DNA of 64,000 bases. It comes from a virus (Duplodnaviria > Heunggongvirae > Uroviricota > Caudoviricetes). A program made the translations under genes and the position numbers. The notes under the pieces were generated by a model that saw nothing but the letters and a program-made list of their open reading frames with translations, made no database searches and was not told the DNA's origin. The DNA lies in the IMG/VR virus record IMGVR_UViG_2778261505_000002; one strand, written 5' to 3'. How positions within the stretch are numbered: position 1 is the stretch's first letter; each line of letters begins with the position of its first letter. Shown here piece by piece: positions 9,034 through 11,922 of this stretch.

Positions 9034-9232
9034 ACGGGAGAAGGAAACGCTTCATGAAATCAGTAAGTGGCCGGAGTTCCCTGAGTACTGGAAGCCTAAA
9101 ACGCGAGCTAAGTTAGAGCGTTTAGGGTTGGTTGCAAACGTTTCTGAAACGTGGTGTTCGGCCAACTACCAGTTAACTGATAAAGGGAAAGTATTGCTAC
9201 AGCAATTAGTAGAATCAGGAGCGTTAAAATGA
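9017..9232 (+). CDS. Hypothetical protein
   Basis: 71-aa ORF with AAGGAG RBS 7 nt upstream. Confidence 0.4.
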   Translation: MIVLSKREKETLHEISKWPEFPEYWKPKTRAKLERLGLVANVSETWCSANYQLTDKGKVLLQQLVESGALK

Positions 9233-9381
9233 TTCCATACATCTCATTAGCTTTTATGGGTGGCTTCCTTATCGGCTTCGGCATCTGTCGTGATTTAATT
9301 AAGCAGGAACTTAAAACCAAAACACTGTGCATCGGAAAGCGTGTGTATCGGGTAGTTCATGAAACAAAGGTGAAAATATGA
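9229..9381 (+). CDS. Small membrane protein (50 aa, not in ORF track)
   Basis: ATGA overlap with previous stop; MIPYISLAFMGGFLIGFGI helix; its first 16 nt recur at 10240 and 11892. Confidence 0.35.
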   Translation: MIPYISLAFMGGFLIGFGICRDLIKQELKTKTLCIGKRVYRVVHETKVKI

Positions 9382-9668
9382 GCAATTTAACTTCTTGGGA
9401 ATGGTGGTTGGCCACCTATTTCTTAGCGGCCGGAGTCGCATTCGCCTTTTACGTAGGTCAGTTAGTCGTAAAACTGTTGCTGATTAAATTTGCTAGTCAT
9501 AAACGTATCGATGATGGTCTGTGGCGTCTTGGCACCCTGGTGGAAACTCGCTACGGGCAACTTAAGGAGAACGAAACCATTACTATCCAAGCGAAACGAT
9601 TCACTGCCACCATTACAAGAACACCTAGTCGTAGAGTGGCCTTGATCAAAAAAGTCACAACCGAATAA
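9378..9668 (+). CDS. Hypothetical membrane protein
   Basis: 96 aa; N-terminal hydrophobic segment; start overlaps previous stop. Confidence 0.4.
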   Translation: MSNLTSWEWWLATYFLAAGVAFAFYVGQLVVKLLLIKFASHKRIDDGLWRLGTLVETRYGQLKENETITIQAKRFTATITRTPSRRVALIKKVTTE

Positions 9669-10059
9669 AAACATATTGATAAGTATTTACTTACTTATCT
9701 TTTATGTATAAGATGACTTTGTTTTCGTTGAGACGCGACTGTTTGAACTTAAATACAAGTGCAAACGAAGAAGTCTATCTGGCAGTAGCCTAATAAGCCA
9801 AACACCAGCGAGGTCAGTTTCCAGCCTCGTTACCGAAATGGGACACACTGAGCGAGTGTGATTGCAGAACGCAGGAGGGAACATTCATGTTCCCTCCGAT
9901 GAAGTAACAGAATGGGCGGTTGGTATATTTTCAACTCCATATGACTCCCGGATTCTTAGCCACTGACCGCCCATCCTGTTACGTCATTTTGTTCAATTAT
10001 GTCGTTTATACTGGGTTAAAAAGCGGCGACGTAGCCCGGCTGGTATGGTTAGCCAGCAC

Positions 10060-10179
10060 ACAACGTTGAGGCCATTACATTTTTATCAATTCTAAGGTTC
10101 TATTCACAGAGATACCGGCGAGCGTTGATATGTAACATGTTGGGCAAACATTCAATCGGAGTAGTGGCCTCAACGTTGT
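10060..10179. other. Long imperfect hairpin (19-bp stem, ~82-nt loop) upstream of tRNA cluster
   Basis: ACAACGTTGAGGCCATTAC ... GTAGTGGCCTCAACGTTGT, 18/19 complementary, read directly. Confidence 0.4.
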
Positions 10180-10446
10180 GAAGACAGGATTGTTGTGTAG
10201 GTTTAACCACTGTTGCCATTGGTGCCTGTTTTCACAACAAATGATTCCATACATCACATTGTATAAATTACAAAGTAGGTGCTGTCCTCAGAAACATCAT
10301 CTACTTAAAGATTTTGCCTTCTACTATTGAGCGAAGTCGAAAGCGTCTGGCACTAACGAAAAGTGCAAGTAGCGGTGCGTTTCCTGGCAGAAACTAAACC
10401 GTCGCGATTGGCACTGTTGAGTAATAAATACTGGCAGTGCTGAATT

Positions 10447-10521
10447 GATGGTGTAGCTCAGCGGTAGAGCAGTTGGCTGTTAACCAACTGGTCGGTGGTT
10501 CGAATCCACCCACCATCGCCA
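10447..10521 (+). tRNA. tRNA-Asn (anticodon GTT)
   Basis: Cloverleaf read by eye: acceptor GATGGTG/CACCATC, anticodon stem GTTGG/CCAAC with loop CTGTTAA, T-arm GGTGG-TTCGAAT-CCACC, encoded CCA; differs from host-type tRNA-Asn. Confidence 0.85.
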
Positions 10522-10526
10522 ATTTA

Positions 10527-10613
10527 GGGGAGTTAGTCCGTAGAGGTAGCGGTGTAGACTGTAAATCTACTGTCATTGCGACTCGGGTGGTTCGACTCCA
10601 TCACTCCCCACCA
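10527..10613 (+). tRNA. tRNA-Tyr (anticodon GTA), class II
   Basis: Acceptor GGGGAGT/ACTCCCC, anticodon stem GTAGA/TCTAC loop CTGTAAA, long variable arm, T-loop TTCGACT, encoded CCA. Confidence 0.8.
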
Positions 10614-10617
10614 AATT

Positions 10618-10693
10618 GCCGGTTTAGCTCAGTTGGTAGAGCGCCTGCCTTGTAAGCAGGATGTCAGCGGTTCGAGTCCGTTAACCGGCACCA
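10618..10693 (+). tRNA. tRNA-Thr (anticodon TGT)
   Basis: Acceptor GCCGGTT/AACCGGC, D-arm GCTC-AGTTGGTA-GAGC, anticodon stem CCTGC/GCAGG loop CTTGTAA, T-loop TTCGAGT, encoded CCA. Confidence 0.85.
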
Positions 10694-10910
10694 ACACAAC
10701 AGGAAAGAGCATTGAAAACCGCCGAGACTGCCCTGTTTTAAGCGTAAGTCCGTGCAAACGTCATACAGTGCTCTTTTCGTTGTGGTTGATGCGCAGACTG
10801 ATGCGCGGAAAGAAATGCCCCAGCGACACACGAGGCGAGTTCACACACTGCAATGCAGTCAGTAGCCGGGGTCGCTAAGCCGGAGATCAGTACCGGTAAC
10901 CACAACAATT

Positions 10911-10997
10911 GGAGAGTAGGGAGCATGGTGCTCAAGCGGTCTTGAAAACCGTCCCATTGTGCAAGCGATGATGGTTCGATTCCATTACTCTCCGCCA
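10911..10997 (+). tRNA. tRNA-Ser (anticodon TGA), class II
   Basis: Acceptor GGAGAGT/ACTCTCC, anticodon loop CTTGAAA, long variable arm, T-loop TTCGATT, encoded CCA. Confidence 0.8.
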
Positions 10998-10999
10998 GA

Positions 11000-11077
11000 C
11001 ACAGCGTTGAGCGGTTTGGCCTTTTAATCACCCAGATTAAGACTCCGCTAACATAAACCAGACCGCTCAACGCTGTG
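11000..11077. other. Long hairpin (20-bp stem, 38-nt loop) immediately after tRNA-Ser
   Basis: CACAGCGTTGAGCGGTTTGG ... CCAGACCGCTCAACGCTGTG, 19/20 complementary (mismatch is a G-U pair in RNA); shares CGTTGAG core with the hairpin at 10060..10179. Confidence 0.45.
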
Positions 11078-11111
11078 ATAGACAATTACGGCAGACGTTC
11101 TTAACCATAGC

Positions 11112-11139
11112 TTGCTAACATCCTAGCAACACTTTTTTT
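11112..11139 (+). terminator. Rho-independent terminator
   Basis: TTGCTA-ACATCC-TAGCAA stem-loop followed by TTTTTTT. Confidence 0.5.
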
Positions 11140-11152
11140 CAGCGCAAAATTC

Positions 11153-11176
11153 AAAGGGGCTTCGGCCCCTTTTTTG
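11153..11176 (+). terminator. Rho-independent terminator
   Basis: AAAGGGGC-TTCG-GCCCCTTTTTT, GC-rich stem plus T-tract, downstream of tRNA cluster. Confidence 0.65.
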
Positions 11177-11218
11177 CAACTGAAAGAGTCAAGTCTACGA
11201 ACTTTGTAGGAAGAAATA

Positions 11219-11569
11219 ATGACCAGCAAAGAGAACACACCACTAAAAGTCACCCCTGAACACATTGAACAACTCATTCAAAGTGAACATTATTTCACTG
11301 CATATGATGCCAGCCACGGGGATAACTTCATCTCTGTTTACAATTCAAAAACAGATATCGACAAAGGTCATGAGTCGTTAAAACTCTTAACGTTCTGCGT
11401 TATGGTTCTCAAAAATGGATATACCGTAACGGGAAAATCTGCGTGCGTAAGACCAGAAATCTTCAACTTTGATGTTGGTCGCGAGTACGCTCGAAAAGAT
11501 GCTATCGATCAAATCTGGCCCCTGGAAGGCTATCTCCTGAAGCAAAAGTGGCATGAGGCAAAGCAATGA
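11219..11569 (+). CDS. Hypothetical protein
   Basis: 116-aa ORF with AGGAAG RBS; stop overlaps start of glutaredoxin gene. Confidence 0.5.
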   Translation: MTSKENTPLKVTPEHIEQLIQSEHYFTAYDASHGDNFISVYNSKTDIDKGHESLKLLTFCVMVLKNGYTVTGKSACVRPEIFNFDVGREYARKDAIDQIWPLEGYLLKQKWHEAKQ

Positions 11570-11811
11570 CGATCACTATCTACGGACGAGATAACTGCTC
11601 ATACTGCAAACGTGCGGTCGAGCTGGCGAAGCAACTAAAGGGACATGGCTACGGTGATTATGAGTACATCGACATCACCACTGCCGGTATCGACAAGGAA
11701 AAACTAAGTGAAATTGTTGGTAAACCGGTAGAGACTATCCCCCAAGTGCTGATCGATGGCCAACCGATTGGCGGATACACTGAACTGGCTGCATACGTCA
11801 GCACCCTCTGA
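11566..11811 (+). CDS. Glutaredoxin-like protein (NrdH/Grx family)
   Basis: 81 aa; redox-active CSYC motif near N-terminus; thioredoxin-fold size. Confidence 0.75.
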   Translation: MTITIYGRDNCSYCKRAVELAKQLKGHGYGDYEYIDITTAGIDKEKLSEIVGKPVETIPQVLIDGQPIGGYTELAAYVSTL

Positions 11812-11817
11812 TTTTAA

Positions 11818-11840
11818 CGGCTCACAGGAGCCGTTTTTAT
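11818..11840 (+). terminator. Rho-independent terminator
   Basis: CGGCTC-ACAG-GAGCCG followed by TTTTTATT. Confidence 0.55.
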
Positions 11841-11891
11841 TCCCACCAAACTCACTCCCGTTTCCCTTAAAATTCAAAAAACAACGTCAAA

Positions 11892-11922
11892 ATGATTCCA
11901 TACCTACTATGTATGGAATCAT
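11892..11922. other. Perfect palindrome ATGATTCCATAC-N7-GTATGGAATCAT (candidate recombinase core or operator)
   Basis: 12-bp perfect inverted arms with 7-bp spacer CTACTAT, ~100 bp upstream of the tyrosine recombinase gene; arm sequence recurs at 9228 and 10240. Confidence 0.4.

Follow-up and report, generated by a model that had tools for sequence, protein, structure and literature searches.

The 64,000-nucleotide stretch of viral DNA in IMG/VR record IMGVR_UViG_2778261505_000002 (hereafter the window) belongs to an SSU5/pHCM2-like phage-plasmid, the nearest record being Escherichia coli phage Cyrano (pLF82), followed by two CMS-2020a records and PhiR41_1. A perfect palindrome is located there just upstream of a tyrosine recombinase gene (int), single copies of the palindrome arm lie on both sides of it, and a group of tRNA genes is found in between. 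What is the palindrome for, and do the arm copies mark the borders of an inserted or excisable tRNA island, as an initial annotation of the sequence had proposed? Comparison with related loci led us to conclude that the palindrome is very probably the site of the neighbouring recombinase, with multimer resolution as its likeliest use, and that the single arms are conserved half-sites and not island edges.

The palindrome and its linkage to int

The predicted core site is 31 bp long (11892-11922) and consists of the left arm ATGATTCCATAC (11892-11903), the spacer CTACTAT (11904-11910) and the right arm GTATGGAATCAT (11911-11922). As read from the sequence, the arms of 12 nt each are perfect, the spacer is 7 nt, and the end of the palindrome is 99 bp from the ATG of int, confirming the palindrome about 100 bp upstream of the recombinase described in the initial annotation. 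A scan for this arm pattern with any 7-nt spacer found it in 7 genome contigs and 101 viral contigs. Allowing a spacer of 0-20 nt returned exactly the same loci (101), and the spacer was always 7 nt. Wherever downstream DNA was present, the distance from the palindrome to the start of int was 96-101 bp for recombinases 82-100% identical to that of the window, or 44-47 bp for those 57-61% identical.

More distant homologues recovered by protein search were placed in their genomic context, and proved to lie on SSU5-like phage-plasmids of Xenorhabdus and Providencia, a 507-kb Pantoea plasmid and Erwinia plasmids of ~106 kb. In all of them a 12-7-12 palindrome was found 18-105 bp upstream of int, with (A/G)TGACTCCAGAC (the new arm) in place of ATGATTCCATAC (the old arm). 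Scanning with the new arm added 80 further loci, and 80 of the 83 new-arm palindromes had Int 40-155 bp downstream, always 40-53% identical to that of the window. Taken together, the 12-7-12 palindrome occurs 18-155 bp upstream of this recombinase gene at ~190 loci, ordinary plasmids without phage genes included.

The old arm accompanies recombinases 57-100% identical to that of the window and the new arm those 40-53% identical; the two arms differ at two positions, and the difference is mirrored in both arms of each palindrome. Across the ~190 loci the arm type and the recombinase clade partition perfectly, with zero exceptions. The earlier proposal that the palindrome is a core-type site of the adjacent recombinase is therefore supported by its invariant geometry, its strict linkage to the gene in three kinds of replicon and the switching of the arm with the clade; judged from these sequence data, it is very probably the cognate site of Int. 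New-arm palindromes at two loci (L214 and L270), with the spacers CTCGTGA and GCAGATT, had no detectable Int homologue in the available sequence, and may be orphans, targets of a more divergent recombinase, or hairpins due to chance.

In both clades the 12-7-12 arrangement has the geometry of a simple core site of the lox/FRT/dif type, that is, inverted arms of ~11-14 bp around a spacer of 6-8 bp. The features expected of a multimer-resolution system were also found, namely a single site per replicon, an extrachromosomal location and an adjoining recombinase gene. Two full palindromes were seen in none of 206 loci, and the Cyrano genome likewise has one; with the single arms fixed whatever the cargo, an integron-like cassette array was rejected. 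The hairpin was also considered as an intrinsic terminator, a reading rejected because there is no T-run beside it and a terminator scanner made no call. Comparison of the arm and its flank element by eye with the known consensus sequences gave no convincing IHF-, DnaA-, Fur-, FNR- or promoter-like match. No description of the site or motif was found in the searchable literature, and a search with the motif gave unrelated primers only.

The recombinase

The int gene (12022-13125, + strand) encodes a protein of 367 amino acids with a two-domain, 'simple' architecture (PF00589, E=6.8e-10). None of its catalytic residues (R184/R185, K211, R281-x-x-R284, H307 and Y316) varies among 24 homologues of 42-90% identity. 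The domain, these residues and fold matches to lambda Int, Tn1549 Int and Xer place it in the tyrosine recombinase superfamily. The AlphaFold2 model (pLDDT, the predicted local distance difference test, 83.6) has a helical core-binding region and a catalytic domain, and its best matches were residues 75-356 of lambda Int and 82-397 of Tn1549 Int. Since these proteins are matched without their arm-binding domains, and the arm-binding domain PF13356 is absent from this Int family, the architecture is simple and Cre/Xer-like; more distant homologues do have PF13356. Consistent with this, Int matched PRK09692 only at model positions 137-393, and the modelled N-terminus of Int is all-helical. A sequence search of the PDB with Int gave no match. 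A degenerate arm copy, TTGATTCCAAAC, lies inside int (12628-12639, - strand), with two mismatches here and one in the lineages of 82-87% identity; it is possibly incidental to the VWNQ coding sequence.

Which protein recognises the arms

The gene order of the locus, which lies within the replication module, is helicase, primase, ligase, small open reading frames (ORFs), tRNAs and cargo, int, a convergent helix-turn-helix (HTH) gene, orf70, CobT/CobS-like genes and DnaE. The HTH gene (13120-13536, - strand) encodes a repressor-like protein of 138 amino acids and overlaps int by 6 bp (13120-13125). It adjoins int, is present in nearly all phage-plasmid lineages and is expressed in the Cyrano lysogen (PMC9928086), and the combination of single asymmetric sites with one palindromic pair resembles the operators of P1 C1. 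The palindrome and single arms might then be dispersed operators of this protein, and we consider this quite improbable. The palindrome accompanies the recombinase into plasmids without an HTH homologue: the pair is present with neither an HTH neighbour nor phage genes on the 507-kb Pantoea plasmid, on the ~106-kb Erwinia plasmids and in Chimaeribacter. The arm differs between the clades, whereas the presumed HTH recognition helix is nearly unchanged, new-arm phage-plasmids included, and the promoter region of the HTH gene itself (13537-13757) has no copy of the motif, with other repeats instead.

Operators of the P1 C1 type are many, spread over the genome, placed in front of the regulated operons and bound by the phage repressor. 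Here there are three single sites within 9.2 kb, two of them inside coding sequence, and the motif tracks Int. In the complete Cyrano genome (108,379 bp) the exact 12-mer arm occurs only at the five homologous places, all within 9.2 kb, and there are zero copies with one mismatch; such confinement points to a local system and not to a genome-wide operator. From the linkage, the covariation, the module without an HTH gene, the conserved HTH helix and the HTH promoter without the motif, we infer that Int, and not the HTH protein, binds the arms.

No S24 peptidase domain was found in the HTH protein by a Pfam scan. Two 21-nt direct repeats in tandem (13680-13721; TGATATGAATGTATTCAGTAT, TGATATAAATTTTAGTAGTAT) are located where the HTH gene and orf70 diverge, with similar sequence in L157, a locus of the SSU5 lineage; they are unrelated to the palindrome motif and are candidate operators of the HTH protein. 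Given the convergent overlap, SOS-driven transcription of int could interfere with expression of the HTH repressor.

Recognition by Int might also serve only to regulate int, the palindrome being an autoregulatory operator of the int promoter and no recombination taking place. The site is always just upstream of int, it abuts a conserved candidate -10 hexamer (gCTATGCT) in the lineages of 57-61% identity, and integrase-fold proteins can be pure repressors, as is MrpR (PMC10516654). The distance to the gene varies from 18 to 155 bp, so that the site is not bound to a fixed promoter geometry, and the exact 7-nt AT-rich spacer and the mosaic boundary at the arm described below are features of a crossover site. 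On these grounds a purely autoregulatory role appears unlikely, but autoregulation may well coexist with recombination.

Spacer variation and plasmid location

The spacers of this family conform to TTAnTAG or, as its reverse complement, to CTAnTAA, and the CTACTAT of the window is a variant of the latter. The spacer drifts between lineages and also flips, TTAATAG alternating with CTATTAA, in other lineages and in the new-arm clade. In PhiR41_1 (L004, 6997-7033) and L054 both flanks are identical and the spacers are reverse-complementary (ATAGTAG and CTACTAT); in this flank class the palindrome is extended to 17-bp arms (cagtaATGATTCCATAC). Such flips could result from action of the recombinase on misaligned sites or from template switching at the hairpin. 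A spacer that drifts and flips beside strictly conserved arms fits a site that recombines only with its own copies, and not an attP matching a chromosomal attB.

The module was carried by 251 of 5,426 complete E. coli genomes, at 254 places, all of them on plasmids; no chromosomal copy was found in these genomes. Integration of the element at a chromosomal attB, with the palindrome as attP core, is nevertheless suggested by the lambda-Int-like fold, by a 7-nt spacer equal in length to the lambda overlap, by the SOS-type control element on int and by the conserved flank element beside the core. We regard it as very unlikely: none of the 254 copies is chromosomal, a spacer that differs and flips among close relatives is incompatible with a fixed attB, Int has no arm-binding N-terminal domain, and the same module is found on ordinary large plasmids.

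The palindrome as the edge of a variable cargo region

Homology of the window with four relatives resumes on the right at 11873, 11889, 11890 and 11891, whereas its ends on the left are scattered. Homology breakpoints between relatives fall at window positions 7563, 10523, 10699, 11077, 11176 and 11789, some of them inside the tRNA array, and never at 9229 or 10241. At 39 loci with Int of at least 97.8% identity, about seven unrelated left flanks reach the arm, with an identity of 0.41 at -30..-1 versus 0.97 at +101..+400. The palindrome is the fixed right edge of a variable cargo region of tRNAs, toxins, morons and resistance islands.

The int-distal flank element (11864-11891; here cttaaaattcaaaaaacaacgtcaaa) has the loose consensus ..tcAGAtTTcA..A-rich.., which occurs in both arm clades, and moves with the cargo side and not with the int side. 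Judged from the alignments, the int-distal part of the site thus seems to arrive with each cargo allele in a version of its own, which is the expected product of exchange within the palindrome between related elements.

The cargo itself differs widely. In a Xenorhabdus SSU5-like phage-plasmid (L195, 6884-9666) the DNA left of the palindrome encodes a DNase bacteriocin of the cloacin/pyocin type, an immunity gene and a ParE/Phd toxin-antitoxin pair; other relatives carry the YafO toxin, Ail/Lom or PhoH at the bacteriocin position. In plasmid pYY76-1-1 (L206, NZ_CP040928) an IS26/Tn3/class 1 integron multiresistance island (1-14931; TEM-1, sul1, sul2, dfrA12, aadA and aph genes) stops 69 bp left of the palindrome, with the flank element intact. 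This IS26-bounded island beside the site indicates that the int-adjacent locus is permissive for insertions and an entry point of resistance genes. Resistance genes of this group have been reported beside the DNA ligase gene, i.e. in the same region (PMC9600943). Cointegrate fusion at the palindrome was considered for two E. coli plasmids of 231 kb and 163 kb and rejected, as neither is fused there; in the 163-kb plasmid a resistance island bounded by IS26 lies 69 bp left of it. Contigs of 300-900 kb with near-identical Int were reduced to an ordinary plasmid neighbourhood.

In Cyrano (L001) the gene abutting the palindrome is CYRAN_43 (9696-10250, - strand), which is hypothetical, is transcribed away from the palindrome and is not in the window. 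Its expression in the lysogen is reported at 723 times the local background, by far the top value listed for any Cyrano gene (PMC9928086). Its promoter must be in or beside the flank element.

Conserved half-sites

The 16-mer AATGATTCCATACATC occurs exactly at 9228-9243 (+), 10240-10255 (+) and 17939-17954 (-). With up to three mismatches there were five matches in the window against 0.76 expected, a number reached in none of 100 shuffles. The initial annotation had reported the arm plus four nucleotides at the first two places; these copies are exact, but the terminal ATC of the 16-mer is outside the palindrome, whose arms continue with CTA and ATA (two and one mismatches), and the copy at 17939-17954 had been missed. 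The three half-sites share ATGATTCCATACATC as exact matches. Site 1 (9229-9243, +) provides with its ATG the start codon of a hydrophobic ORF of 50 amino acids (9229-9381), which overlaps the stop codon of the ORF at 9017-9232; site 2 (10241-10255, +) is in a non-coding structured block ~190 nt before tRNA-Asn; and site 3 (17939-17953, -) is inside a DnaE-like ORF (17689-21207).

The half-sites keep their three positions throughout the old-arm phage-plasmid lineages, to Int identities as low as ~60% and with divergent flanks: at the start codon of the 50-amino-acid ORF, ~1 kb downstream in non-coding DNA, and on the opposite strand in dnaE ~6 kb right of the palindrome. All three are oriented towards the palindrome, and their positions are unaffected by the 1.2-5 kb of differing cargo found in the intervals to it. 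Each is a single arm without a second one, and the next 7 nt differ from the palindrome spacer. The arm is invariant in 49 distinct contexts of site 3 (flanks ~0.8) and is ~97% conserved at the other sites, where the flanks are 50-80% conserved. At site 3 no old-arm lineage has a synonymous change in the codons TGT-ATG-GAA-TCA, although nine different residue pairs are specified by the two codons before them. At site 2 the reading frame closes after 5-6 codons in several lineages, so that the constraint is not on protein. The half-sites are under selection on their DNA (or RNA) sequence. In L132 an in-frame duplication of 9 bp in DnaE at site 3 (GATGTATGA GATGTATGG...) has produced a partial tandem copy of the arm.

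As the initial annotation had stated, the segment from the 10240 copy to the palindrome contains tRNA genes, four in number (Asn, Tyr, Thr and Ser; 10447-10997, +); they are part of the cargo, vary by internal indels and do not have the repeats as their boundaries. Direct repeats flanking these genes are formed by the 10241 copy together with the left palindrome arm, and the intervening region varies among relatives, as would be expected if the copies were junctions of an inserted or excisable island. This idea is hardly credible in view of the comparisons. The half-sites are fixed in all old-arm lineages and also in SSU5 and L157, which lack Int; the spacers are unrelated; the breakpoints lie elsewhere and never on the half-sites; and no deletion or inversion between any two copies was seen in more than 200 loci. 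Two apparent deletion candidates, loci with only one left-hand site, have their breaks inside orf50 and ~58 bp left of site 2. Moreover, the tRNA region does occur in a relative without recombinase or palindrome, namely SSU5.

In SSU5 (L113, NC_018843, 12597-12762) the palindrome, int, the HTH gene and orf70 are all absent and tRNA-Asn is directly followed by CobT, and in L157 (2101-6027) the palindrome, int and the HTH gene are absent and orf70 is kept. SSU5 may behave as a lytic phage because it has lost the putative repressor.

Selection could also act on RNA. The palindrome would form a 12-bp hairpin; sites 1 and 2 read AUGAUUCCAUACAUC on + strand transcripts and would be able to pair, as antisense or over a long range, with the dnaE messenger RNA, which holds their exact complement. 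In favour of this, each gene involved is encoded by the + strand, a start codon falls within site 1, and the complementarity of sites 1 and 2 to site 3 is perfect over 15 nt. However, the arm sequence itself is conserved and not just the pairing, the palindrome occurs on plasmids without partner sites, and there is no Rfam match; an RNA-level motif is thus most improbable. Rfam matches in the window were limited to the tRNAs, with no other family.

The block that holds site 2 is a non-coding stretch of 778 nt between orf96 and tRNA-Asn (9669-10446, +), with several long stems and a minimum free energy of -263.5 kcal/mol (z = -8.7; none of 20 shuffles was as stable). It is ~71-80% conserved in other lineages (window 9678-10255, in some only part), and may encode one structured RNA or several, ahead of the tRNA array, with no Rfam match.

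Putative promoter of int and a LexA-like box

A putative int promoter (11948-11976, +), deduced from conservation only, consists of TTGATC (11948-11953), 17 nt, and TAATAT (11971-11976). The pattern TTGATC-N17-TAATAT is conserved in all lineages with Int of 82-100% identity; a consensus promoter scanner did not list it. Directly after the -10 hexamer is a putative LexA box, TACTGT-N8-ACAGT (11976-11995, +), with CTGT at 11978-11981 and ACAG at 11990-11993. In the same lineages CTGT and ACAG never change, in contrast to the drifting 8 nt between them; lineages of 57-61% identity have no such box. Its conservation suggests that int may be under SOS control. Ciprofloxacin induces Cyrano 39-fold, and the genes expressed in its lysogen do not include int (PMC9928086).

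Comparison with known systems

The TnpI/IRS system of Tn4430 is similar in its symmetric core motifs, its short asymmetric spacer, its extra motifs that reuse the core recognition sequence and the location of the site beside the gene (PMC2847244). TnpI also tolerates reversal of the core relative to the accessory motifs (PMC2847244), which parallels the spacer flips seen here. The IRS differs in being 116 bp long with DR1 and DR2 directly beside the core on one side, whereas the additional arms of the present system lie 1.6, 2.7 and 6.0 kb from the core, on both sides and inward-pointing; its core has 14-bp motifs and a 4-bp spacer versus 12-7-12 here, and there is no detectable sequence relationship. 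By analogy, the half-sites could act from a distance as accessory sites, like TnpI DR motifs taken to an extreme, or else be regulatory sites, with integrase-fold repressors as a loose precedent.

Cre/loxP of phage-plasmid P1 is alike in its simple two-domain recombinase, inverted arms, asymmetric spacer and site near the gene, and it serves to resolve multimers, a function to which surveys of phage-plasmids refer only in general terms (PMC7969092). Cre is only a weak structural match to Int (E about 0.1), and int differs in carrying the LexA box. The loxP site is 13-8-13, and we know of no dispersed half-sites for Cre. XerS/difSL and XerH/difH each combine one recombinase with a site of ~30 bp immediately beside its gene, and XerH is a structural match to Int; these modules serve chromosomal dimer resolution coupled to FtsK, whereas the module here is found on plasmids and phage-plasmids only. 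Over its core-binding and catalytic domains Int is matched best in structure by lambda Int and Tn1549 Int, and the lambda overlap is 7 nt, the same as the spacer here, but lambda-type integrases differ in having an arm-binding N-terminal domain and integrated forms; no such domain was found in this family and no integrated form in the complete E. coli genomes, and the spacer here is not conserved.

The sfx sites of the Rci shufflon have a conserved arm of 12 bp, a 7-bp spacer and a non-conserved arm, and inversions occur between opposed sites that share the spacer. No inversion was seen in more than 200 loci here, and the half-site spacers differ from that of the palindrome and, in most lineages, from one another. 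MrpR of SPbeta (PMC10516654) and SroF of phi3T (bioRxiv 10.1101/2025.11.27.690993) have a tyrosine recombinase fold and regulate a temperate phage genome through repeated sites that they bind in it, and offer a possible analogy for the half-sites. They differ in that their structural similarity to Int is only weak (ranks 34 and 36), and Int keeps its catalytic residues, whereas loss of catalytic function is a feature of integrase-fold repressors.

Proposed function

At the palindrome, one recombinase monomer would bind each 12-bp arm and strands would be exchanged across the 7-bp spacer, as at loxP, dif and the Tn4430 IRS core. In this way plasmid multimers would be converted to monomers, the likeliest job because the element lives as a plasmid; annotation of Cyrano shows no site-specific recombinase besides int. 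As a by-product, co-resident relatives would recombine at the palindrome and leave a fixed right-hand edge to the variable cargo region. The half-sites would most probably bind single recombinase monomers, as distant accessory or regulatory sites. The observations behind this account are the linkage, covariation, invariant geometry, intact catalytic residues, exclusive plasmid location and DNA-level selection on the half-sites described above; that Int binds the arms, cuts in the spacer and resolves multimers, and that the half-sites have a role, is what we infer from them. Plasmid multimer resolution as the function of the Int/palindrome pair is, on the sequence data, somewhat better than an even bet.

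Several observations weigh against this account. The left flank also takes IS26-borne cargo, so its variability partly reflects a permissive location, and exchange at the palindrome could also be homologous recombination ending in the conserved block. SSU5 and L157 keep the half-sites although they have neither int nor palindrome; a comparison for relaxed constraint after loss of Int gave one substitution (site 2 of SSU5) in 90 nt, a small count from two genomes only. Within +/-10 kb, new-arm phage-plasmids contain neither type of half-site, and the part of their DnaE that corresponds to site 3 is different; old-arm modules outside phage-plasmids likewise have no half-sites. With half-sites in Int-less genomes and none in new-arm ones, the link between Int and the half-sites comes down to their 12/12 identity with the core arms. 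Finally, the conserved LexA-like box on int in the lineages of 82-100% identity, together with the absence of int from the genes expressed in the Cyrano lysogen, is unusual for a housekeeping resolvase and may point to a role in induction. Int may act mainly during induction, or transcription of int may interfere with the convergent, overlapping HTH gene. The LexA box therefore lowers our confidence in the label of resolution, and leaves that of core site of this recombinase unaffected.

A more speculative proposal, to which we give a limited chance, is that catalytically intact, SOS-derepressed Int also binds the three half-sites in the replication module, either linking DNA damage to the switch from plasmid to lytic growth or building a kilobase-scale synapse. 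Convergent transcription of int into the overlapping HTH repressor gene might then add to induction. If this were true, Int would be a recombinase doubling as a regulator with catalysis retained.

Taking the palindrome as the core site of Int, the module is undescribed but of a conventional kind, and its unusual part is the conserved, kilobase-distant, inward-pointing half-sites inside genes. With them, DNA-level selection for recombinase half-sites could be studied in a tractable setting, within essential genes. The recombinase and its site form a new pair with two natural specificity variants two arm positions apart, and possibly an orthogonal lox-like tool. SSU5/pHCM2/pMT1-like phage-plasmids are common in Enterobacteriaceae and carry toxins, morons and resistance islands at exactly this locus, and definition of the site gives a testable account of how they may be kept as monomers and of why their cargo varies at one fixed edge.

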